This document shows positions 23,541 through 58,700 of a stretch of 64,000 nt of DNA, piece by piece. Position 1 is the first letter of the stretch. Each line of letters opens with the position of its first letter. The notes under the pieces were generated by a model that searched no databases, was not told the DNA's origin, and saw only the letters and a list, made by a program, of their open reading frames with translations. Made by a program: the position numbers and the translations under genes. The DNA lies in the NCBI GenBank assembly GCA_044892525.1, contig CM097887.1, positions 88,390,397-88,454,396 of the forward strand, in the 5' to 3' direction. This DNA comes from Schmidtea polychroa (taxonomy: Eukaryota).

Positions 23541-25214
23541 TGAGTATAAAAGCGACCGGCAAGTAAACAGAATTGCCAGTAGGTCGAAGAAACGTAAAGA
23601 AATAATCTAACGAGAGGAAGCAAAGGAAATTTGAACTTAGTAATAACTATATAGTTTTGAATCGAGCGTATCAGAATGAGGCATCTCCCGTCAAAAGATT
23701 AATCTCAGCGCAAGGTTCAGATTAATATTGAAAGGTGCAGATCAAAAGAGTTACTTAAAGTTATGGTTGTTTCATTAAAGAGTGTAATCGATAAAAGTGT
23801 AATTGTATTAGTCTCAAATAAAGATTATTGTGTGGGATTGTCTAACTTAATTTCAAAAAGGACGCAAAAGAGTCAGACCGGGATACAGACTTGAACAAAA
23901 TACCCAACAAAGGTATTGTATACAGCTATTATACAGTATAATTACGAATTTCAGGTTATTTATGATTTAATTTCAAAAAGTATAGATTTATTAATTTTCT
24001 TTCTAAATGCAAATAATTTCGGGAAACCTTTCTTATGTGATCGTAATAAATTCCTCCTTGTTCTATGATTTTGATAAATCTTTTTAATTAATTTTTAAAA
24101 ATCTAAAAATATTTAACCTTAAACTTATTATTTCCATTATACGTTACGTTTTTTGAATGCTTTTTGGTAATCTATCCTTATTTCTCGAATTTCTAAAAAT
24201 TTTTAAATTACAATGAATATGAATAGATAATAATTTACTGATGTTCATATTTATTCCCCCCCCCCCCCTACTCGCGAAAAGGTGAAATGTGATAAAGCGC
24301 TTGAAATATCCTGAAATTGCACATTTTTTATAAATAACAACGCTAGCAATAAATTATTATACCAGAAAATTTTGTTCACCTGTGTGTATTTTTTGTATAG
24401 GGTCGTTGTGTGTAGGGTATGTGTTTATATTTTATATTTCTCACCAAAATTATTTTTCTGCTTTTCTGCAGTAAATGTACTTCATTTATGCCGTTCGCTT
24501 ATAATTATTATTCATATTTCATGTAGGTATTTTTTTCGATATAGAAATTAATCGGGTTTTATAATACCTTAATTTGTGACTAAACGTACCATAATATTTG
24601 CGTTTTTGTATCCAGTGTAACTAGATTTTAAACACGCAGGTAAGTTGTTGTGTTGCCTAAATTATGAAATTTATTGATTGTTTTTAATTATAGAAAGTTT
24701 TATCTAAAATGTATACTGAGTGTACTACTTTCTTGATTTCTATAATAAAAGATGGTGTTCTTTGAAATAGCAAATATCAACACACAGGTAAGTTGGTCTG
24801 TTTATATAAAATAAAGTTATTGATATTATTGTTATATTATAGGTGATATTATCCCATGAAACCGAGGTATATTTTAAGGACATAAATACAAATTATTACA
24901 GCCTTTCTGTGAAATATATTTGTTATATACATTTTAAAAACAATGACTATTTTCAAAGATGTTTCATTCTTAATTTTCCATGTTTTGACAAATTTTAAAG
25001 TAATACTCATTTAATAAATAATCATTCTTAAATTATATTTTATTAAAAATCTTCAAACTCTAATTATTTTAATCTTAATTAAATATGCCATTGTATTTTC
25101 TAATGTAATTAACCGTAAAATATTAATTGTTTGTTTGTTTTCTATAGAATTCCCTACCGTTGGACCTAGGGTGCTGAAATTTTGCATGTGCCCCTCATTT
25201 GACTCGGGACAGGT

Positions 25215-26306
25215 TGTTGTGGTTGGCGTAGTCCTTTCTGGTGATTTGGCAATAGAATCATTTCTTTGACCATTATTCGAGAAAACGCTAAATAATTCTT
25301 CAGTTTTCTTTTTTTCTGGCTGATATAATGATGGATTTTCGCAATGAATTATTTTACAATGGGTAGTATTGAACAAAACCGCGTCACATTGTTTGTAGTC
25401 ACAACAATATTTAATACATTCGTCCCACTCATCTAGCATGATTATCTTTTGTATGATATTAGTTTTATTAACAAGACCAAATGGAAAGTGATTCAATAAC
25501 ACGATTTGTGAATACCTATCATCAGATGAATTAATATTCTTACATACTTCCTCCTTGTTCGAGGTTATGAAATTTAACAATATCAGTAATGTAAATAATT
25601 TTAAAATCATTTGAGAAGAAAAGTAATTAAATTCAATTTAAAGTCAGACAATTTATATAATAAATTCGATTTACACAATTTTTATTTAAATTACAATTTT
25701 CACTTATTTAAGTAAAACAAAAATATATTATAGAAACTATATAAAAAATGTAAATATAATCAGACCAGATAAACATATTCAACAGCCATTTCTCATTTAC
25801 AAAATGTTAACTAAATATAAATTGTCCATGAACCATTTTGACCATTGTCATTCGCATACAATATTTGAGGAAATGTATATCCTTTGCCGTTCTGATCCTT
25901 TTTTGCATTATCACATTGATCAGAATTTGTAAAGACGTGTGGTGGTTTGATAAAAAGATCTTTTCGGGTTCATATTATTGTTAGGATTTGTTCCGTATTT
26001 CGCGAATTGTAATGGATGAGGGTGTTGGTCTATGAGAGCCAACACTAAAACTATTGGGAGCCGAATACAGTTTATCTTGATAATGATAACATGGCATCGA
26101 ATTTGCTTTACTCGTCTGAGATTGATTAATAGAGCCTGATTGATAAGTAGAAGTATTAGCTGATCGCACGACTTTTGATTGACTATACTTGTGTTCTGTT
26201 TGGTCCTTATTCGTTGGTGACCGCGCATTTATATATAATATAATATAATATAATATAGTATAATAGGTATATAGATATTGTTAAGGCCGTGTAACGGCTC
26301 ACTACA
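25215..26306 (-). repeat. LTR copy (1092 bp), itself flanked by CAGGT on both sides
   Basis: Near-identical to 32585-33723 apart from about 5 substitutions and a 47-bp deletion. Confidence 0.9.
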
Positions 26307-26671
26307 CAGGTCATAGGCTATGTTTCACCCCCAGGTTACCCCTCCCCCCCCCCTAGGGTACCCTTAGTCGGTTTTTTTGTCTGTCCGGTCAGCAATTTAC
26401 CATATAAATAATAATTTATTATATGCTTGCTACTTGCAGTTGAAATAAATATAATTTAGTCAAAAGTTTTCAAAGCAGAATTCAAACATGGAGAATTTGA
26501 ATATTATTTGATTAGTGAACCAGTTTGCAATTGGAAAAATATTGCCAGTTATTTTTCGATTTAAATTGGAGTGCGTTTTCGATTTTACAAGTAGTGACAA
26601 TTTATCAAAGGTGGATAGTGTCTAAAAAGGAAATCGGCGATTGATGAATTAATTGATCACATGGAATAAAG

Positions 26672-29600
26672 TTAAGTGAATTTCAGCATCAGATGTGTCA
26701 AATTTTCATTGGAATAGACTCTGGCAAGTCTTGGAGGTTTGGAAATGTCTTCACCAATTTGGCGCACCCAAATCTTATCACTATGTTTCACATTTTTCGC
26801 GGTTCGCTGCTTGTCGGGTTTCGAAACTATTGAGCGAAGATTTAGTAGATTTGTTGTTGCTGGATGTGTATTCTCTGTAGCTAACTTTTCATCGCGTTGG
26901 TAGTTTGTGATCAAGGTACGCGCGATTTCGTTTGAGTCTGTGGCAGGTTCTACTGAAGGGTTTCCGTTCGACGTAGTTGGAATGGGTTCGACTGAGACTT
27001 TCTCTAAATCAGAGTGAAGTTTGTCTTCGTCCACGTCATCAGAAATCATGAAATTTATATTTTGGGTAACACCGTTAATAACGATGTGAGCATTGTTATC
27101 CTTAATGTCGATCAATTTGTAAGGCCCCGAATATCTCGGTTTGAGACCTGAATCCGTAATATTACGAAGATAAACGTGAGTTGCGTCCTTGAAGAACTTT
27201 GGGACGTACGGTGTGTATGAGGAAGCATACGAAAACTGTGGGTTGCTATCGATCGAAAGAAAATGATCTCTAGCCATATCTAATTCCTCAAAGGTAGGAG
27301 CGTTATCGAAATCAACTAATTCGTTAGGTAACGATGTTGAAGAACCGAAAAGTAACTGTGCCGGTGTAGTTCCGGTAGTCCTGGAGGGCGTGTTACGCCA
27401 ACCAAGAAGGACAAAAGGTAAAGCTTTAGTCCAATTAAGTCTCGATGAAAGTATTCCAAGAGAAGTCTTCAAAGTACGGTGAAATCTTTCGATCATGCCG
27501 TTTGTCTGAGGATGGTAAGCAGTTGAACGGAGGTGTTGTATACCGAGCTTTTCAGTTAGTTGTTGAAATAACTGGGATTCAAACTGAGATCCCCTTTCTG
27601 TGATTATTGATTTCGGAACACCGTATCTAGAAATCCAATGTTGCAAAATTGAATTTGCTACAATTTCAGCAGAAATGTTTTTTAGAGGAATAACTTCAAA
27701 CCAACGCGTTTTCCGGTCAATCATGGTTAATAAGTAAGAAAAACCGCGATCAGAAGGCAAGGTCGATGTGAAGAATTTCGAACCTATTTCCGGTCGGATA
27801 GTGAATCATCTGTGGATTAGTGTGTCTAGTGATCTTGTGTTGTTGACAACCGATGCACTGACTCACCCACAATTTCATATCGTGCCTCATTGCTGGCCAA
27901 ACCACATGTGAATGCAATAGGTTGAAGGTAGCCGACGAACCTGGATGATGTAAGTCGTGAATGGAGTGGAAAGCTAATTTCCGTAAGGAATCGTGCAAAA
28001 TCGGTCTTAAAACACCTGATAAAGACGAGTCAAAGTGTACTCCGTCCACGATTTCAAGCTTATCGCCAAAAGCAGCTAGATCTTTTGCCGAAGGTGGATT
28101 GTCGCGGAGGCACTGTACTGGAAATATCGGATCGTGCAATATAACGTTGGTGCTGCGGGAAAGACAGTCTGCAATAACGTTTTCTTTGCCGGCAATGTGG
28201 CGTATTTCGCAAGAAAATTCTGAAATATAACTGATTTGCCTCTGTTGTCGTGGAGATGGGTCTTTCATTCCAAAAAGATAAGTTAGCGGTTTGTGGTCAG
28301 TGTAGATGACAAAAGGACGACCTTCAAGCAAGTGCTTGAAATGTTTGATTGAAAGATATATGCCTAAGAGTTCTCGGTCGAAAGCCGAATATTTCCGTTG
28401 TGCGGAAGAAAGTTTCTTTGAGAAAAACTCTAAGGGTTCAGAAATGTCATTATGTAATTGGTGTAATACTGCACCAATAGCAACGTTTGATGCATCAGTG
28501 GTCAGACTCCAAGGTAAATCAGCATTGGGAAAATGGAGTGTTTGAATTTTCGAAAGTGCCGACTTAGCGTTTTCAAATGCACTGAGTGTGGTATCGCTCC
28601 ATGACACTAAAGACTTTTTTGGTTTTGAAACAAGACCTGAAAGAGGTGACAAAATGTCAGAAACCCCTGGAATAAAACGATGACAATAGTTTATCGTTCC
28701 CAAAAAACTTCTCAGTTGTGAAACTGTTTTTGGAAGTGGGAATTTGGCTATGGTATCTAGTCTATCCGGAGGAGGTCGGATTCCATCTCCGGAAATTAAA
28801 TGTCCCAGAAAACGAGTCTCGTGTTGGAAGAAGGTACACTTATCAACGTTTACCTTAAGGTTGTATTGCCGAAGTGCTGTTAAAGTTCTTGTCAGATGGG
28901 TTATATGCGTCTCTAAATCAGGTGATCCGATTAAAATGTCGTCTATGTAAGGAACTGCGAAAGGCAGGTCCATTAAGACTTGATCAATATACCTTTGAAA
29001 GGTCTGTGCAGAATTACGAAGGCCAAATGGCATATGCACGTACTCGAAAAGTCCGATCGGAGTTATTACGGCTGTTTTTTCTATGTCAGACTCTCGCACG
29101 GGTATCTGATGGTACGCCTTCACGAGGTCGATTGTGGAGAAAATCTTGCCTTTGAAAGACGGTGAAGGATATCACTAACAAGCGGCATGCTATAGGAATC
29201 ATGTACCGTAATAGCATTAAGGTTTCGATAGTCGCCACACGGACAGAAAGTGCCATCTTTTTTTGGGACCAGGTGCAATGGCGATGACCATGGAGATTTA
29301 GATCTCCGAATGGTACCCTCATGTAAGAGGTTAGTGAACTCGGAACGTACAAATTCGAGTTTTTCATTCGACAGTGGTCTAATTTTGCATCTAATTGGTA
29401 AAGATGAAGTTGTGTCGATCGTGTGGCAGTAAAGCGGCTTCGAAACGTCACTTATTGGCGTGTTAAAACACCTATTAATAATATCTAAGGCTATTTTTGG
29501 GTGTTCGATTGTTATAACCGTTTTCGACGGAGTAGTATATATATCGTCCGTTCCTATCCGTTGTGGATCTTCAAAGATGTTTGAGGGAATAGTGCTGCAG

Positions 29601-30004
29601 TTTAATTGGTTATTTATCCTTAAAGTGCGTCCACGGCAATCTACGAGTAGTTCGTTAGCGCTTAAAAAATCAGATCCTAATATGGGGATAATAACCTCTG
29701 CTATATAAAATTTCCACTCAAATAATTGGTCGGACAGAAATGGCAACGAGAAAGCAATTGTCTTTGAATCTAAAGTCTCAACAACACTACCGTTTGCGGC
29801 CTTCAAAGAAATATCGACAGTGTTGAGGTCTGGAAGGTACTCTTTAGGTAAGATCGACAAGCTGGAACCAGTGTCGACAAGGAATTTTAGTCTGTTGGAA
29901 GGAGACGACAATATATTAAAAGCGTTTGACTCTGCTTCTATTAAAAATAAATCTGATTTTGATGAAATTTTGCCTCCCACCTCTGCCGCTAGAAGTGGTG
30001 GCAT
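26672..30004 (-). pseudogene. pol: Pol (protease, RT, RNase H, integrase) broken by two frameshifts (~29130, ~27755)
   Basis: FLVDTGSS; KAYHQIP; YIDD; TTDASNVAIGA; FDRELL; YTDHKPL; IN core TMIDRKTRW...ERGSQF...MIERFHRTLK; GPY motif PRYSGPY. Confidence 0.93.
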
Positions 30005-30066
30005 TATAAGTTTTTTTGATTGTTTGCTTTAGGTTTTGTGTAATTGGAGCAGCCTTCGAAGCATTT

Positions 30067-32244
30067 TTAGGCTTTATCTCCAAACCTGTCGTGGTATATA
30101 CACTTGTCAAGTATCTGACAGGATGGTGCTTTGTCTCGCCAATTGCAACCTAGATGGCAGAACCGTGCCTTGTTACGAAACTTAAAATGGAAACGGCACA
30201 GGTTCCTGGTTGCAGGTGAACGTTGACGAGTATTTTGCACAAAGTGTGATTTTTGGGCATATTGCCTGTCGTCATTTGTCCGCCTGGTGGACATGCTATT
30301 CTCAAGCTCGCTGATGCGTTTATTGAGGCCTGTAATAGCGCAAAGTAAGGCTTCTTCGGTCGAAGGTTTTAAAGAAGAAGAAGAAGGTAAAATTTCGGGG
30401 TTAGTGCTGCTACTTAACTGCACAGAGCAAGTTGGTTGCGGACCAAGTGGCACGACTTCGTTAATCTTGTCGGCCATCTTTGCTAGCTCTACCACGTCTG
30501 CTGTTGACGAAAGCGCTAAAATTTGTTGTGCGTGTGGCGGTAAAGCAGACAGAAAAAATTGCCTCAAGAGTTTTTGATCCGCCGCAGCCTCCGGATGTAT
30601 TTGCGTTAGTTCCGCCATGGCGTGTTGCAAGAACTGTGATGGTTTCCTGCTGCCCAAAGTTTGCGTCTTAAAGTATTTAGTGAAGACGGCAGCTGTAGGT
30701 TCCTTAAAAATATCGAGGATTGCCGTACGCAATTCTTCATATGGGTTTTTAACGCTAGTAGGCGAAGTGCGAAGGATCACGGACGAAAGTTTACTTAATA
30801 TCGTCGGCGGAATCAACGGCAAGATGCGACAGTATTTGTCTCGTGAACTGGTTACCTCGATTCCCTCGAGTGCTAGTTCGGTAGCTATCAGCCAAGTAAG
30901 TGGAGAGTTATTCTCATCCAAAAAATATTGACATAAGTACGTTGATCGCTGGTTGTTGGACCTACGTTTATGTTTTGCCTGTTTGGGGTTGCTGCCTGAG
31001 TCATTCTCCGAATCGGAGGAACCGCCAGAAAGTTGCAACAAACAATGAATGACGCTGTATGGTGTCACTCCATAGTCGCCCAAGGAACGACTGTCGGAAA
31101 GGATGTTGCCGTTATACGACAAGAGAAAACGGCATTTGTGATTAGTCAATATGCTGTAATTTTTAGAAAGACCTTTAATTGTAGTCTCTGTGTCAACTGA
31201 AACGGTTTGTGTCTTATTTGTTCCAGGGTTTTCTATTAATATTTGGAACTTTTTGGGCCCCGGTGCGGCGCTACCCTCTCGTGTGGGCTGATGCTTATTT
31301 AAATAATTTATTATAATTTTATATATGATATCAATAATAATATAAATCAATAATAATATAGTATAATTTAATAATAATATAATAATATAATTTAGAGGTA
31401 ATCGATCTAAGGTACCTGGCGGTGCTGACACGGGCATTGCTTGATTGAGTCTCGATTCGCTGGGAGACGGTTTATTATCGTGAATAAATGGCTGTCCCGG
31501 TGCACGAGAGTTTAATGTGAAAAAATCATTATTCTGTTGCATTAAGAATTCATTTGGATTTGGTCGAAGCATGATGCGTTGTGGGGCTGTGTATAAGACA
31601 TCACTCGTTAGCAATTTGTTATTTGGTATATAATTGTTGATCGGAGTCATTTTTTTACGATTTTCAACGGCAATCATCTCAGCCAATGCTTGCCGGGAAA
31701 CATTAATCGAATCAAAATCTATATCGGCTGTATCTTTATATTTCTGATCGTAATGTGAATTCGGTTTCTCCGAGCCAAATATGCGATTTATATCCATTTC
31801 GTTTCGATCCTGATACTGACCGTAGTTAAGCACACCGTTGTTGTTTGCCTGTTGATTGATGTTGTGATCGTATGACTGATTATTATTGTTGTTATTCTTG
31901 ATTGCGGCGTGGTTTTGAGAATTTAACTGGCAGAAACTTTCCAGCAGAGAATTCGACGAACCAACTGAATTCAAACTGTTCATAAATGATTTCTGATCTG
32001 AAAGCCGTGACAGGGGAGATGTGGAATTCAGTGTACTGTGGAATTCAGTAATATCATTACCAGCTGAGCTATTGAAAGCACTGAATAGGGGAAATTCGGA
32101 TTTAGTATCCGATGATTCAGATTGTAATTGAATACTTTTACTGATAAATTTGAAAGACGATTTATTTATCGGGTCAGCAATTTGAAATTGAACATTTGGA
32201 ATATGATTATTATCTGATATTTGCAGGGGTCGAAATGGAATCAC
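30067..32244 (-). CDS. gag: Extended Gag ORF: Ser/Asn-rich region - hydrophobic helix (31389-31300) - ubiquitin-like domain (31248-31021) - Gag with CHCC knuckle
   Basis: 725-codon open frame (GTG start as called by the ORF track); Gag motifs LGSRKPSQFL, FLSALP, LAKMADKI, CRFHFKFRNKARFCHLGC; UBL tail LSDSRSLGDYGVTPYSVIHCLLQLSGG. Confidence 0.85.
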   Translation of the reverse strand: MIPFRPLQISDNNHIPNVQFQIADPINKSSFKFISKSIQLQSESSDTKSEFPLFSAFNSSAGNDITEFHSTLNSTSPLSRLSDQKSFMNSLNSVGSSNSLLESFCQLNSQNHAAIKNNNNNNQSYDHNINQQANNNGVLNYGQYQDRNEMDINRIFGSEKPNSHYDQKYKDTADIDFDSINVSRQALAEMIAVENRKKMTPINNYIPNNKLLTSDVLYTAPQRIMLRPNPNEFLMQQNNDFFTLNSRAPGQPFIHDNKPSPSESRLNQAMPVSAPPGTLDRLPLNYIIILLLNYTILLLIYIIIDIIYKIIINYLNKHQPTREGSAAPGPKKFQILIENPGTNKTQTVSVDTETTIKGLSKNYSILTNHKCRFLLSYNGNILSDSRSLGDYGVTPYSVIHCLLQLSGGSSDSENDSGSNPKQAKHKRRSNNQRSTYLCQYFLDENNSPLTWLIATELALEGIEVTSSRDKYCRILPLIPPTILSKLSSVILRTSPTSVKNPYEELRTAILDIFKEPTAAVFTKYFKTQTLGSRKPSQFLQHAMAELTQIHPEAAADQKLLRQFFLSALPPHAQQILALSSTADVVELAKMADKINEVVPLGPQPTCSVQLSSSTNPEILPSSSSLKPSTEEALLCAITGLNKRISELENSMSTRRTNDDRQYAQKSHFVQNTRQRSPATRNLCRFHFKFRNKARFCHLGCNWRDKAPSCQILDKCIYHDRFGDKA

Positions 32245-32980
32245 ATAGAACGACTACGGGATCCAAAAAATCACGATCTGGAATTGTCTGAATTAATTTG
32301 ATATACTCTTCTCGATTCGATGACAAACAGGAATGAGCAATTATCAAATGATCTATCAGCCTATCAATATCATGGGATATAGGATTAAATTTTGATGAAA
32401 GTTTTAATTCAGGAAATATTTTGGAAAGCGTATGGAACATATTTTGACGTAATTCCGCTGTTCGTTTATGAGAAACTAACATAGATTGTATTTCCTGTAA
32501 TCTGGATTTAGCAATGATATTAGCCGCTAAATAAGTTTCTAAATGTTCAAATCTTGAACATTGTTCTGGCACTTCTGACACCAATGTTGTGGTTGGCGTA
32601 GTCCTTTCTGGTGATTTGGCAATAGAATCATTTCTTTGACCATTATTCGAGAAAACGCTAAATAATTCTTCAGTTTTCTTTTTTTCTGGCTGACATAATG
32701 ATGGATTTTCGCAATGAATTATTTTACAATGGGTAGTATTGAACAAAACCGCGTCACATTGTTTGTAGTCACAACAATATTTAATACATTCGTCCCACTC
32801 ATCTAGCATGATTATCTTTTGTATGATATTAGTTTTATTAACAAGACCAAATGGAAAGTGATTCAATAACACGATTTGTGAATACCTATCATCAGATGAA
32901 TTAATATCCTTACATACTTCCTCCTTGTTCGAGGTTATGAAATTTAACAATATCAGTAATGTAAATAATTTTAAAATCAT
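32210..32980 (-). CDS. Secreted MANEC/MANSC-domain protein starting within the LTR
   Basis: Signal peptide MILKLFTLLILLNFITS; Cys pattern C...C-x3-CC-x4-C-x9-C-x4-C-x5-C; Thr-rich RTTPTTT; frame continues through the LTR end and PBS. Confidence 0.8.
   Translation of the reverse strand: MILKLFTLLILLNFITSNKEEVCKDINSSDDRYSQIVLLNHFPFGLVNKTNIIQKIIMLDEWDECIKYCCDYKQCDAVLFNTTHCKIIHCENPSLCQPEKKKTEELFSVFSNNGQRNDSIAKSPERTTPTTTLVSEVPEQCSRFEHLETYLAANIIAKSRLQEIQSMLVSHKRTAELRQNMFHTLSKIFPELKLSSKFNPISHDIDRLIDHLIIAHSCLSSNREEYIKLIQTIPDRDFLDPVVVLCDSISTPANIR
32570..32583 (-). promoter_or_regulatory. Primer-binding site, tRNA-Leu type
   Basis: TGGTGTCAGAAGTG one base after the LTR-terminal CA; complementary to the ...CACTTCTGACACCA 3' end typical of tRNA-Leu. 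Confidence 0.8.
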
Positions 32981-33723
32981 TTGAGAAGAAAAGTAATGAA
33001 ATTCAATTTAAAGTCAGACAATTTATATAATAAATTCGATTTACACAATTTTTATTTAAATTACAATTTTCACTTATTTAAGTAAAACAAAAATATATTA
33101 TAGAAACTATATAAAAAATGTAAATATAATCAGACCAGATAAACATATTCAACAGCCATTTCTCATTTACAAAATGTTAACTAAATATAATAATTTCATA
33201 TAGTCCGATTATTTCTAAAGATTTTACAGCCTGCCGATTTGTCCATGAACCATTTTGACCATTGTCATTCGCATACAATATTTGAGGAAATGTATATCCT
33301 TTGCCGTTCTGATCCTTTTTTGCATTATCATATTGATCAGAATTTGTAAAGACGTGTGGTGGTTTGATAAAAAGATCTTTTCGGGTTCATATTATTGTTA
33401 GGATTTGTTCCGTATTTCGCGAATTGTAATGGATGAGGGTGTTGGTCTATGAGAGCCAACACTAAAACTATTGGGAGCCAAATACAGTTTATCTTGATAA
33501 TGATAACATGGCATCGAATTTGCTTTACTCGTCTGAGATTGATTAATAGAGCCTGATTGATAAGTAGAAGTATTAGCTGATCGCACGACTTTTGATTGAC
33601 TATACTTGTGTTCTGTTTGGTCCTTATTCGTTGGTGACCGCGCATTTATATATAATATAATATAATATAATATAGTATAATAGGTATATAGATATTGTTA
33701 AGGCCGTGTAACGGCTCACTACA
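32585..33723 (-). repeat. 5' LTR (1139 bp)
   Basis: TG...CA termini, followed by PBS, outer CAGGT TSD; AATAAA on minus strand at 33056-33051. Confidence 0.92.
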
Positions 33724-34505
33724 CAGGTCATAGGCTATGTTTCACCCCCAGGTTACCCCTCCCCCCCCTAGGGTACCCTTAGTCGGTTTTTTTGTCTGTC
33801 CGGTCAGCAATTTACCATATAAATAATAATTTATTATATGCTTGCTACTTGCAGTTGAAATAAATATAATTTAGTCAAAAGTTTTCAAAGCAGAATTCAA
33901 ACATGGAGAATTTGAATATTATTTGATTAGTGAACCAGTTTGCAATTGGAAAAATATTGCCAGTTATTTTTCGATTTAAATTGGAGTGCGTTTTCGATTT
34001 TACAAATTGAAATTTATTTTGAAAGCTTTTCTTATTGTGAATTAAACATGGAATTGAAGCTGTTATAAAATTAATACTGAAACGTAATAACATCATTAAA
34101 CAAAAAATTAATTTAAAAGAATTATTATAATAAATGTAAACTCAGGCGAAGCCGGGTACAACAGCTAGTATATTATAAATAAATAAATCGATCCCTAAAT
34201 TGTTTAGTAAAGGTTAAATATGAAGGAAATTTGTTAATTTCAAAAGATTCTAAATCTCAAACGGTTTGACTGGCTACTTTTATATAAACAATTTATAATA
34301 AACAAAACGTTAACACTTTGCATCATTTAGAAAATATAATTTTTATGTTCAAATTCTGTTTACTAAATATTTATATTGTGACATCCTGTCTTCGATCAAA
34401 CTTCAGCTTATTGCATAGGTTATATAAATGGTATTTTTCTCATAAATTTAAGTACAAAGTGGTGACCATCGTCCGATCTAGCAACCGACCTTCAAAACAA
34501 ATCGA

Positions 34506-49700: not shown

Positions 49701-52700
49701 CTCTTTATACATTTTTTAGCGAGCTAGCCCTCAAAATACATAATATTGTAAGCCTTTAAATAATTGGATAAATTCAGTTATCAAAGAAGATTTAAAAAAC
49801 TGACTTTCTCAAACCGGAAAATATGACACATCCTCTCACGTATTGCATCATCTATCAATCTAAGTACATTTATTATCTATACATTAATCTATTTATTATT
49901 TGTGTTAAAATACTCACGCATGAAATACAGCATATAGCAGTACCACATTTAAACGAAATAAAGCAAATTCATACATTCAAATGTGTAGAACTATTATATA
50001 TATAATAGTAACTTTCTTTCAATAATAAATTAGCCGCTGTACTGAAGAATAAGAAATATAGTTTTCAACCTCTAACTAGAATGCTTTAATCTTATTCACT
50101 TCTTTTTTCATAGAACCCACCCTNNNNNNNNNNNNNNNNNNNNNNNNNNNNNNNNNNNNNNNNNNNNNNNNNNNNNNNNNNNNNNNNNNNNNNNNNNNNN
50201 NNNNNNNNNNNNNNNNNNNNNNNNNNNNNNNNNNNNNNNNNNNNNNNNNNNNNNNNNNNNNNNNNNNNNNNNNNNNNNNNNNNNNNNNNNNNNNNNNNNN
50301 NNNNNNNNNNNNNNNNNNNNNNNNNNNNNNNNNNNNNNNNNNTAATATTGTATTTTCTGAAGATATTTACTTTAATCTTTATTAAGAAAATTGAGTTATT
50401 GCTCAATGATAAATTATACAAATACTCTTATAATGTGACTTACCAAAATAATCTTACAACTGTCAATGTAAATATAAAAAAGAAAATAAGAAAGTATATG
50501 GTAAAAATGTCCAATAAATCAGGATTAGATATATTACCAGTATCAACAAATCTTATCAACAAAGAAACACAGTTAGTGTTTGAAATANNNNNNNNNNNNN
50601 NNNNNNNNNNNNNNNNNNNNNNNNNNNNNNNNNNNNNNNNNNNNNNNNNNNNNNNNNNNNNNNNNNNNNNNNNNNNNNNNNNNNNNNNNNNNNNNNNNNN
50701 NNNNNNNNNNNNNNNNNNNNNNNNNNNNNNNNNNNNNNNNNNNNNNNNNNNNNNNNNNNNNNNNNNNNNNNNNNNNNNNNNNNNNNNNCAAAGATTAAAA
50801 ACCCCAATCCAAGTAATTATATAAAATTTATAGTTCCGATGTTAAAGATCAAGTTTATAGCAGCTTTATTTGTTGAATTTATGTATATTTCATTTGCTAA
50901 ATATTCATATGAAGTTAAATCTAGTTTATTTTATAATATATCACTAAATAAATGTGAGGAAGATTTAATTATTAGCACAATATAATATTATAATAATAAA
51001 TTACATCTGAATTATTACTATTAAGAAATTAACATATACATATATTAAAGTATTATATTCGTATTATATTATGGCGTACATAATTATTATTGTTATTTAG
51101 AAATGCTTAATCGTCAATTTAATGATTTGTTTAGTCAAACCGATATTGTTATAATTTTTTGAATATAATTTGAATTCGACTTCTAGTTTTATTTAACATG
51201 GCGACCCTGGCAATAGTGAATAAGATGATTCCGGATGTTTACGACGGAAGACACGAAATCGAAACTTTCATTGAAGAATGTAAGCGATATTTTCAGTTAT
51301 GTGGGTTAGATCAAGATAACCAAAATATGATGATAAAATGCCTTATTTCAAGAGATATTTTACCGATTTATGAAGCCGTCGATGTCAAATTTATTAATTT
51401 TGAAGATAGACTCAGAGAAGCTTTCAAGAAGCCGTCAACACTGATAGGCGATTTTCTGAACTTATACAATTATGAGAAAGATAACGATGCAGCGCCAGTG
51501 TTTTTCGAAAAGATTGAGAAAATGGTCGACAAAGTATTGAAACACAAGTGGGATAAAAACGAATTAGTCGCTTATTTTTTGATACATTGTGTCAAAGACA
51601 AAGAAATCCAAAAAGAGATCAAGATGCGAGATGCTTTAAAAGTCGAAGAGATCAAGGACGTAATTCGTAAAGTTGATGCTATCAACATTGAAGTTTCTAG
51701 TATTGCAGTTATGCAAAGAAAAGAAACGTTCGCAAACGTAATAAAGAAACGACAAGGATTTGCCGATATACAAGATCGACAACGCAATTTTTCGAATGTT
51801 CAAGAAAGACGAAATTTTGAACCAAGATTCAATTCTATTCCGCACGCTCAAAGCTTCGATTCTGGAAGGAATACTAATCAACAGTATTACCATAGAGACA
51901 ACAGAGCAAGTGGAAGTCGCGTTGTTACATGTTGGAATTGTCAAGAACTAGGACATTCGAGTCGAGAATGCCCAAAAAAGAAGTGTTATGGATGTGGAAA
52001 AGAAGGACACATGATTAGAGAATGTAAAAATAACAAGATAAATTCAGAATTGAGATGCAACGCTTGTAAGGAATCTGGCCATCACCGGGGAGAATGTCCA
52101 TCGATTTCATGCTCAGGATGTGGAAAACGTGGTCATTTGCGGTTTCAATGTTGGGGAACAGCAGACACACGATCATCAGGAAGAAACCAATCTAGAAATT
52201 ACGAGGATAACAGACGATATCAAGACAGATATGCCGATGGAAGAGTGGCAGCTATGGAAGACCGCGGAAACGAAGCGGAGGATTCTCAGTCTACCCGAAG
52301 TGATGGACACCCAAATGGGAGGGCTCCGTCATTAGGCGAGATGATAGGAGCCATGCATTAAAAGGTAATAATGATGATTGTGTGCGCCAAGATAAGTATA
52401 GTATATTTTTTAATAATAATAGTAATAGTAATTTAGACAGTATGTATAATTTTAAAAGTAGTAATAATAATTTAGACAGTATATCTAAATCAAATTTAAA
52501 GGTAAAAAATATTAGATTTAAATCAGATGTAATTTTAGAAGATAGTATTAAAAACGTGAAAAGTAAATTAAAAAAATATGATGTAATAAAGGAAGATAAT
52601 CAGAGTAACAGTAAGATTATATATGACGTAAGAGATAAAACTGATATTAATGATTGTAATTGGATGCGTGATAAAATTAATGTAATTGAAAATAAATGTG

Positions 52701-55700: not shown

Positions 55701-58700
55701 TAGATGACAACGTTTTAGTAAAGATAGACACAAGAAAAAAAGAAGATGATAGATACAGAGGACCTTTTCGAGTGATAAAAAAACTACATGATAGAAGTTA
55801 CGAACTTATGGATAAAGAAGGTAAAACAATGATTCGAAATGTAGAATGGCTAAAGCCTTTTAAACAGGGGGGATGTGAGGAAGATTTAATTATTAGCACA
55901 ATATAATATTATAATAATAAATTACATCTGAATTATTACTATTAAGAAATTAACATATACATATATTAAAGTATTATATTCGTATTATATTATGGCGTAC
56001 ATAATTATTATTGTTATTTAGAAATGCTTAATCGTCAATTTAATGATTTGTTTAGTCAAACCGATATTGTTATAATTTTTTGAATATAATTTGAATTCGA
56101 CTTCTAGTTTTATTTAACAGTAAATAACAGAAAAAATTATTATTAATCATATAAAAGTACATTATTTTTTTCTTACACTAGAAAGTTTTAATTTTTCATT
56201 TGATCATAAAATATTGAAAGTGCAATTCGCAATTCGTATTCTAGCTCTAAATTCATTCCAGAAAAAATATAAATTTGTAATTTATAAAATATATGGCAAA
56301 AACAATTTTTTAAAAATAACTTGTTAATTATAAATAATTACTTGTATTTAATTTCGCTAATTTTGTTGACTAAAAGTATAGGAAATAAGAGATTGAAATG
56401 CATTGTTGAGTACCAGTCTAAACGTTGTCTAAGGTTAAAATGATTATAGCAAAAATATTTTTGAAGAGACACAATCTGTCCTCTTTCAATATCAGATAAA
56501 TGTTTTCTTCTAGGCATTCGGTATATCAGTGTTGTCCAAACTTTTTTGAGCCATGGCACACTTGGCTGAATTAAAAATTTTCGCGGCACACCTAAATTTT
56601 TTTTGCTTTATTTGCAATTTTTTATTGCTCTTTTAATAATCTTTTAATAAGAAATGAAAAACTTATAAACTAAAAAATATTATTATTTAATATTTAAGAT
56701 TCTAAATAAACATAATTAAGCTGCTTACGTATTTTAGATAGTCAATATTTCTAGTAAGAAATATAAATATGATTGTAAACAAATAAATTTCGCACTTAAT
56801 TGACTGATTAACATTTAAATTTGAAATGACTGTTAAAATATCTACAATTCAATTTCCTTTTTTTAAGTTGTTTGGAAAAACAGGGTTTTTTTTGACTTTT
56901 TTTTAAAAAAATTTCACGGCACACCAAAGACAATGCGAAACATCCAATAGGTGTCGGTACACTTTTATACAGTAAAACAAGCAAACTTTTAAATATTTCT
57001 ATTATAAGTATATTGCTACACCTAGTTAGGTATAAAATCTATAGTATAAAACCAATATTTAAAATAATTGTTTAATTTTATGAAACACCCTAAACTTTTT
57101 AAAATGATGAGTTAACATTTTATTTTATATACAGCTATACTTATGTAAATGACTGTACATAGCTGAACAAAAAGTATTTTATTTAACGAGATATGTCAGT
57201 GGCGGATTTAGCTATAGGCGTGGGGGGCAAGTCGCCCCTCCACGCCCCTGTTGAATCCTAATTGGTGCCCCATAAAGATAATTTTTATGAATGTGTACAA
57301 GCATTAATATTAATCCGATCACTGACACTGACAATTTAATATATCTTTGATTTGGAAGAGCTAAATGGATTGAAATGTATTCTACTATCACTGCAGCATA
57401 CAGCTGCTCAGACTTTCCTACAGATCCAGGACTCTACATTAATACGAGCATAAGCTCGAAACTAATACGAAAATTGTTTGAAATCGGACCATGTCAACCT
57501 AGACTCAATGAACCATTTCAATTTCCGACAGATGAATTGGGGCGCAAGTTTCAAATTTCTTGGTACACAAAATGTTTCGGAAAAGGTAGTATGAAGGAGG
57601 AAAGAAATTGGCTTGTCTATTCACCAACAAATCAAAAAATGCATTGCCAAGCTTGCTGGTTATTCGCTAATTGTAAAACTGAAAATTATAGCAAGGAATG
57701 GTCCGACCCAATTTTTGGAAAAAAGGCATGGAAAAAATCGCTAAACATGAAACTTCCAATCAACATCAAAGTGCAATATGTCAATATTTGCTGGCTAAAT
57801 ATCGCATTTCAAATGATAAAACTGTGATATCTGGTTTGATCAGTCAGGAGCGTTATCAAGTGGAAAAAATAGAAGTTTTGAAACGAATGGTAGATGCAAC
57901 GTTGTTTTTAGCAGAACAAGGTTTGCCATTTAGGAAATTTTCGTGAATTGGTATTTTTATTGGCTAAATATGATTCCACTTTGGACAATCATCTAAAGTT
58001 TGAAAAGAAAAATGAACTTTATTTATGTCATGATGTACAAAATGACCTAATTCAATCACTTGCCTTAGAATTATCCGCAAATATTGATAATGAAGTTAGG
58101 TCTGCATAATTCTTTTCTCTAATTGTTGATTCAACAATTGATATATCTAGAGTTGATCAGATGTCAGTTTCTTTAAGATAAGTGTTAAAATCAGGACAAG
58201 TTGTTGAACGATTTATAGGCTTCTACACGTTGGAAAACCGTAATGCTGCAGCATTTTCTAATATATTATTAACGGAGTTACAAAAGCGAAACATTGACAT
58301 TACACTTTGTAGAGGACAGGCATATGATGGTGCCTCTGTGATGTCTGGGATTAAAAATGGTCTTCAAACTAAGATAAAGACACTTTCACCAAATGCCATC
58401 TTTGTTCACTGTTGTTCTCATGCATTGAATTTGGTGACTATTGAAGCAATGTCTATTAACAGCGATGTTCAGTTGTTTTTTGGTACAACAGAAAAGTTGT
58501 ATACTTTCCTTACATCAAGTCTACCACGACTACATATTCTCGAAGAACATCAGAAGTCTCGATATGAATCGACAGTAGATACTCTAAAACGACTTTCTGA
58601 TACAAGATGGGCAAGCCGAAAGCATGCAGTTGATGCAGTTGTTGGATCATTCTCCGCTATTATATCTACTCTAGAAGATATAAATTTTGTGGAATCAAAA

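Follow-up and report, generated by a model that had tools for sequence, protein, structure and literature searches.

We have found a Ty3/gypsy retrotransposon family of Schmidtea polychroa in which gag is probably opened by start codons borrowed from host genes and read through a disposable leader, with a host deubiquitinase that would free Gag at the Gly-Gly (GG) ending a ubiquitin-like domain (UBL). The copy studied lies on the reverse strand of a 64,000-nucleotide stretch (assembly GCA_044892525.1, contig CM097887.1, positions 88,390,397 to 88,454,396; hereafter the window, to which coordinates refer). About ten interchangeable host-derived cassettes occupy the long terminal repeats (LTRs) of the family; the MANEC cassette carried by the window copy is only one of them, a minority. 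Alignment of distant relatives indicates that the conserved, clade-wide invention is the UBL-GG and not the hydrophobic helix or the ectodomain that accompany it in the window.

Structure of the element in the window

A 5-bp target-site duplication (TSD; 33724..33728, twin at 25210-25214) flanks the element. The 5' LTR (32585..33723, 1139 bp, TG...CA), whose initial ~350 bp are common to all LTR types, and the 3' LTR (25215..26306), which carries the MANEC cassette as the 5' LTR does, differ by 6 substitutions over 1092 aligned bases and by 47 bp in length. Gag is followed by pol (26672..30028, in three pieces in this copy), encoding protease, reverse transcriptase, RNase H and integrase in that order (PR-RT-RH-IN), which together with paired TG...CA LTRs and a TSD places the element in Ty3/gypsy. 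No F- or gB-type envelope (env) was found among six open reading frames (ORFs) scanned with Pfam.

The original prediction, made from the letters of the window, described two overlapping ORFs encoding an envelope-like ectodomain, a membrane helix, a UBL and Gag, and every part that it named is present. ORF1 (32980-32210, 256 aa) and ORF2 (open from 32253 to 30067, 728 aa) overlap by 44 nt. ORF1 contains four sequons and a MANEC-type/KIAA0319_N domain at residues 52-106 (Pfam, 32.9 bits, cut-off 27), and ORF2 contains five sequons ahead of the helix, a hydropathy maximum of 2.67 over 19 residues (289-307) and a ubiquitin domain at residues 345-407 (Pfam, 33.2 bits, cut-off 25.4). The AlphaFold check that had been proposed gave a long helix at the hydrophobic stretch and a beta-grasp UBL (TM-score ~0.89 to ubiquitin/ISG15); a beta-grasp fold ending in GG is the form of a ubiquitin-fusion precursor. 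The signal peptide and transmembrane helix of the MANEC form are predicted from hydropathy and the structure model.

The stretch 32585-33723 recurs at 25215-26306, and the signal peptide, the MANEC domain and the segment formerly taken for a Thr stalk are thus LTR sequence; ORF1 therefore spans the LTR end and the primer-binding site (PBS). In reading order, the captured cassette (32629..33051) supplies a 5' leader, the ATG at 32980, the signal peptide and the MANEC/KIAA0319-N domain. The 44-nt LTR tail (32585..32628) is the former 'Thr stalk'; seven different cassettes are joined to it at a fixed point, its first base. The 14-nt PBS (32570..32583), inside ORF1, is translated in frame as LVSEV. 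The post-PBS segment of ~105 codons (32245..32569) has a ratio of non-synonymous to synonymous rates (dN/dS) of ~1.4 among copies; a Pfam search of it gave no match, and its origin was not found. Next come two in-frame host pieces, one from a Trp/Gly-rich UBA-domain gene (32050..32244; 92% identical, host locus L136) and one from the Asn/Ser-rich disordered part of CNOT4 (31437..32038; 94-98% identical, host locus L133). The hydrophobic helix (31300..31389), a predicted membrane span, is encoded by DNA of 95% A+T that resembles the LTR's own AT-rich stretch; that this DNA might be an intron was rejected, as the candidate GT/AG pairs would shift the frame. The UBL (31021..31251) ends LSGG, with the GG codons at 31021-31026, and abuts Gag (30067..31020), which consists of a DUF7041 capsid, scoring under the Pfam cut-off in this copy, and two tandem CX2HX9CX3C knuckles (30067-30170) that are also kept in distant relatives of the Gag clade. 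A premature stop cuts the second knuckle here.

Continuity of the gag frame across the family

A 1.57-kb leader query gave 207 candidate genomic places, 40 of them scored (94-100% identity), and the exact LTR-end/PBS junction occurs 127 times in the genome, with 100 occurrences listed. We examined 108 loci, comprising the 30 best leader matches (biased toward the window copy) and 78 loci from the junction list. These hold 113 junctions, of which 71 have the family's internal start, 9 are rearranged family forms and 33 belong to unrelated families, the latter representing few families only; a few junctions are duplicate scaffolds or tandem copies. Both LTRs are present in 29 of 39 ten-kb family loci, and 26 of the 29 copies have a 5-bp TSD. 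With LTR pairs 98.7-100% identical, the family is very young. A 376-bp LTR copy considered as an ancestral short LTR also lacks the leader and gag start and was set aside as a deletion derivative.

At 46 of the 71 family junctions an unbroken frame runs from within the LTR, across the PBS, to the end of gag, which bears out the single ORF1-ORF2 frame that had been proposed. At least 45 codons are open inside the LTR in the gag frame at all 71, and 64 have an ATG at least 30 codons upstream. The other two frames at these junctions are open for 5-44 codons, and 32 of the 33 junctions from unrelated families have 3-7 open codons. For the joint between ORF1 and ORF2, the original prediction had offered an indel, a frameshift or splicing. 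The split region (32210..32253) proved to be a lesion private to the window insertion, recurring only in a duplicate scaffold of the same locus, and neither splicing nor a programmed frameshift is needed: other copies are continuous at the acceptor-like site, and no such joint occurs in contigs of four public runs, whose RNA nature is only guessed and which were used solely for finding host transcripts. The duplicate (L002/L161, contig C29) is near-identical to the window locus, flanks included, and is probably its unplaced haplotype scaffold.

Host-derived cassettes and their junctions

By cassette type, the 71 junctions divide into D (21), E (18), F (14), B (5), MANEC (4), short B (4), C (3) and G (2); further types are DDX6 (two lengths), HD-domain, long B, long C and H. 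Cassettes D, E and G derive from an isochorismatase gene (88-97% identical) and F from an ENGase gene, and donor loci were also found for cassette B and the DDX6 cassette. The HD-domain and G-protein-coupled receptor (GPCR) pieces were identified by Pfam only, and a Pfam search of cassettes B-F alone gave no match. The MANEC cassette reproduces exons 1 and 2 of a host gene (locus L132) in spliced form, without the 49-nt GT-AG intron. Three cassettes lack host introns, four in all (49, 48, 43 and 49 nt), and capture therefore passed through spliced RNA.

Every piece with a located donor (MANEC, isochorismatase, ENGase, B, DDX6, CNOT4 and GW182-like) is in its native host frame; in the G and H types, the isochorismatase start frequently fails to reach the LTR end in frame. 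Within the leader, public-run contigs match 31442-32036 and 32050-32215 and then diverge into CNOT4 and the Trp/Gly-rich UBA-domain gene, which we take from its architecture to be GW182/TNRC6-like. The best relatives of the latter protein are fluke and tapeworm proteins; a Pfam search of it and a PDB search of its fluke homologue gave no match. CNOT4 and GW182-type products are cytosolic, and the sequons of the Ser/Asn region are therefore incidental. An uninterrupted 400-codon frame, resembling what we take to be a BAR-SH3 (endophilin-like) protein, was also seen next to a truncated B-type LTR (L202, 1820-3020).

Seven cassettes join one identical LTR base, 32628. The MANEC, ENGase and long B cassettes stop exactly at host GT splice donors, the MANEC cassette at the next donor after exons 1-2 of its host gene. 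Microhomology marks the joints of isochorismatase, CNOT4, long DDX6 (7 nt) and shortened B. Intron-less host pieces and microhomology are the hallmarks of LTR-mediated retroposition; three junctions lie instead at splice donors. From the short DDX6 form a 132-nt stretch is missing that begins GT and ends at an AG just before the joining base, and the host DDX6 sequence has an AG directly ahead of the base matching the joining point; the short form suggests that the fixed LTR joining site has served as a splice acceptor. The surviving copy of the long DDX6 form has no AG at the joining site in either LTR, and H-type LTRs have CAG there. An LTR bearing a polypyrimidine acceptor was also considered and discarded, since each of the 4 exact AG matches, out of 69, turned out to be a coding cassette of type H.

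Selection on the leader and Gag

We estimated dN/dS from codon variants common to at least two copies in 38 distinct open-frame copies (45 before removing identical ones; 16 for pol); bootstrap intervals for small regions are unreliable in this estimate. Gag (0.12; 17 synonymous, 7 non-synonymous) and pol (0.07; 25, 6) are constrained. For the leader (382 codons), where constraint had been anticipated, the value is 0.75 (15 synonymous, 43 non-synonymous), which differs from that of Gag (p 0.0003) and is indistinguishable from neutral (p 0.33). Indels were compared in the 71 copies after four likely duplicates were dropped and five others added: leader indels are in frame in 5 of 6 cases when common to at least two copies and in 10 of 31 private cases (p 0.03). 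In-frame shared indels and a near-neutral dN/dS together argue that the leader must stay open and that its residues matter little.

UBL-GG beyond this genome

A query spanning helix, UBL and Gag start was compared with 1.84 billion representative sequences and gave 297 matches, 150 of them listed. Its inclusion of the UBL favours UBL-bearing matches, and matches scoring on Gag alone also carry GG. Among the 150 listed, 33 contain this Gag; xxGG stands just before the capsid core in 27, is absent in 1, and 5 are too short upstream to judge, giving 27 of 28 with enough sequence. All 14 proteins aligned, at 27-37% identity, keep the GG unchanged. This conservation lends good support to the proposal, part of the original prediction, that Gag may be released at GG.

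What precedes the UBL varies. Pfam domains were found there in 4 of 23 relatives (histone H2A, CNOT1 with Rrp44, 5'-nucleotidase and SCC3 pieces), some relatives have very short leaders, and the PBS peptide [LM]VSEV occurs in 5 of the 33. A strong hydrophobic stretch is present in 7 of 17 long-leader relatives and beats its own shuffle in 1 of 17. For two long relatives, uninterrupted frames of 796 and 1303 codons were confirmed in DNA, and UBL-GG-Gag is also seen in another contig; the remaining relatives could include gene-calling chimeras. A metagenome scan yielded 4 loci from 123 pattern matches, with no LTR or PBS in any contig, and an alignment-based profile search gave just 3 matches.

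Primer-binding site

Over 14 nt only, the PBS matches the 3' terminus of a tRNA-like repeat, presumably of tRNA-Leu type, whose variable arm is long; ARAGORN and Rfam give the repeat no name. Copies with a longer match to the repeat have a stop directly after it or internal deletions (L004, L100, L056, L085, L099, L111, L152), which is a cost of translation through the PBS. At G000:C2:73.95-74.09 Mb (L198), a 733-bp unit is repeated in tandem that carries tRNA-Gly, tRNA-Gln and a further tRNA-like sequence left uncalled, a pattern with 2271 genome matches.

Discussion

The explanation that we favour is as follows. Translation would start on a borrowed host ATG inside the LTR, and ribosomes would cross the PBS and leader in the gag frame. 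Host deubiquitinases would then cut after GG to give a fixed-length Gag free of the swappable leader, so that the UBL would make captures tolerable. Capture would take place at the RNA stage. Some pieces would enter by microhomology template switching; for others, the 5' exons of a host gene would be spliced, in cis into an intronic insertion or in trans, to a fixed phase-1 acceptor where the LTR tail begins. Both LTRs would then receive the cassette through reverse transcription. Where the cassette is of the minority MANEC type, the helix would serve as a stop-transfer sequence keeping UBL-Gag cytosolic, and the resulting type I membrane protein would be a by-product.

Several observations weigh against this explanation. 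One further junction has only 21 open codons and no ATG. In L176, a full-length copy with a TSD, the DDX6 cassette in both LTRs and a broken pol, an in-frame deletion has removed the helix together with most of the UBL, with LSGG retained. Within the family, dN/dS of the UBL is 0.59 (4 synonymous, 8 non-synonymous; p 0.49 against 1), a domain too short for the test to tell constraint from neutrality. The captured pieces compared with their host genes give 0.48 (p 0.011), which could reflect host-side selection or some constraint on the leader. Host DDX6 is intronless at the junctions, and the exon-end joints predicted for both forms failed in part; the ENGase intron in which cis-splicing would require an element showed none. 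Cleavage at GG and the starts of translation and transcription are predicted from sequence.

An extension of the favoured explanation is that a widespread gypsy clade, hitherto undescribed, works as a natural gene trap, in which a splice acceptor at the LTR end and release at the UBL would let an intronic copy, expressed as the tail of whichever host gene it sits in, still give free Gag. We regard this as possible but somewhat doubtful. If true, the element would be freed from its own promoter and start codon, and host gene starts, notably those of RNA-silencing genes, would keep being fixed into LTRs.

The captured pieces might alternatively counter host silencing, as decoys, by steering Gag to RNA granules, or through small RNAs hitting host silencing genes. 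Three of the ~10 identified donors, counting the presumed GW182-like gene, belong to the CCR4-NOT/miRNA/P-body machinery, a distant relative bears CNOT1 and Rrp44/DIS3-like pieces, and in the most numerous subfamilies the CNOT4 piece has become fixed, with the lowest dN/dS in the leader (0.50). However, the interval of that value (0.3-1.09) includes 1, a sister subfamily with a longer GW piece (and a secretin-type GPCR piece in some copies) has no CNOT4 piece, GW motifs are missing from the window's subfamily, and the other donors are housekeeping enzymes; we think this role unlikely.

Still less probable is an incidental leader, with translation initiated internally at an ATG that immediately precedes the helix, in-frame captures that only avoid damping by stops or out-of-frame starts, and a UBL with a role in folding or turnover or as a cleavage site for the protease that the element encodes. 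The near-neutral dN/dS, the ATG ahead of the helix (ORF2 residue 273) and the short leaders of some relatives fit such a model, but selection for an open frame over ~380 codons plus the LTR cassette implies ribosomes crossing the leader. An invariant GG at the exact end of the UBL, moreover, marks ubiquitin-type processing, unlike retropepsin sites.

The model of the original prediction, in which signal peptide, MANEC, leader and helix form an envelope-like surface protein tethering Gag to membranes, is very improbable: it can draw on the signal-like N-terminus, on the helix followed by basic residues, whose frame is kept in 38 of 38 distinct open-frame copies, on another MANEC-type copy unbroken for 669 codons from signal peptide through helix to UBL (with a break then in gag), and on 21 near-complete genomic copies of the MANEC-type LTR, but MANEC occurs at 4 of 71 junctions, enzyme genes are the source of the commonest cassettes, the would-be lumenal Ser/Asn region is cytosolic low-complexity sequence of CNOT4 and GW182-like origin, shared helix variants are 1 synonymous to 5 non-synonymous, a strong helix is found in the above minority of distant long leaders, and MANEC-type insertions whose leader was read are broken before the end of gag in 5 of 5 cases against 21 of 64 others (p 0.006; biased sample), an excess that may stem from greater age or sampling. 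The membrane-protein look of the window copy is likely one borrowed piece, not an envelope.

The favoured explanation can be set beside known systems. In yeast Ty1, as in our family, the GAG frame opens inside the 5' LTR and the coding sequence contains the PBS, but Ty1 has its own fixed start and neither host cassettes nor a UBL. Murine leukemia virus glyco-Gag is an N-terminally extended, membrane-inserted Gag, a form predicted here for the MANEC minority only. Pestivirus ubiquitin insertions are processed by host enzymes. In relation to the CsRn1 clade, our family has two CX2HX9CX3C knuckles, a 5-bp TSD, a PBS matching the presumably Leu-type repeat, and the UBL-GG with a long captured leader. 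We call it CsRn1-like, as the original prediction did, and not a member, given the CsRn1 knuckle with a 5-bp TSD and an apparently different primer. CsRn1-clade elements (CsRn1, PwRn1, AgCR) are described with a CX2HX9CX3C Gag, a 4-bp TSD and a tRNA-Trp PBS (PMC2582038), and 'ubiquitin' occurs 0 times in the accessible portion of that article; the knuckle, the PR-RT-RH-IN order, the lack of env after pol and young LTR pairs are shared.

In LTR-mediated retroposition, as far as the available text of PMC5131818 describes it, captured host sequence takes the place of part of the ORFs, and the element becomes non-autonomous (Bs1 is cited there). Microhomology capture of host mRNA, multi-gene chimeras and further rounds of copying are common to both; here, in contrast, the captured pieces occupy the LTR and the leader and share the gag frame, many copies retain open gag and pol, and several captures meet one fixed base at host splice donors. 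Cytopathic pestiviruses also place ubiquitin or a UBL directly before a viral protein, alongside mosaic cellular inserts (excerpts of PMC13517609), but these are sporadic and in an RNA virus, whereas a diverged UBL-GG is fixed clade-wide in a retrotransposon Gag precursor here. Compared with env-carrying gypsy elements (excerpts of PMC13524379), our family is without an F- or gB-type envelope, and its N-terminal extension varies, derives from the host and is nearly neutral.

A literature search that had Repbase, Dfam, GyDB, most subscription journals and supplements outside its scope turned up no paper describing a UBL-GG placed ahead of Gag in a retrotransposon; prior annotation may exist in those sources. 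Nor did we find described a replication logic in which the start of gag is outsourced to host genes and N-terminal maturation likely to deubiquitinases. The family is in effect a running exon-shuffling machine, in which a mobile ORF present in many copies carries in-frame fusions to ~10 host genes within one genome, with donors and splice junctions still readable. It makes testable the escape from promoter silencing, the shielding of an element from small RNAs by captured host sequence, and the origin of membrane-anchored Gag through captures that happen by chance, which may be an initial step on the way to envelopes.

Additional features of the window

The constant LTR part contains two overlapping open frames of ~100 codons (33337-33645 and 33398-33697), one of which continues in frame into the DDX6 cassette in L176; they may be an older capture. 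About 290 bp of the upstream flank (33724-34017), presumably a Helitron-type miniature repeat, are duplicated before the 3' LTR at 26307..26605, on the same strand as the element, in place of the family's usual 3' end. Identical 247-nt direct repeats at 50952-51198 and 55873-56119, 4.9 kb apart, are possibly another young LTR element.

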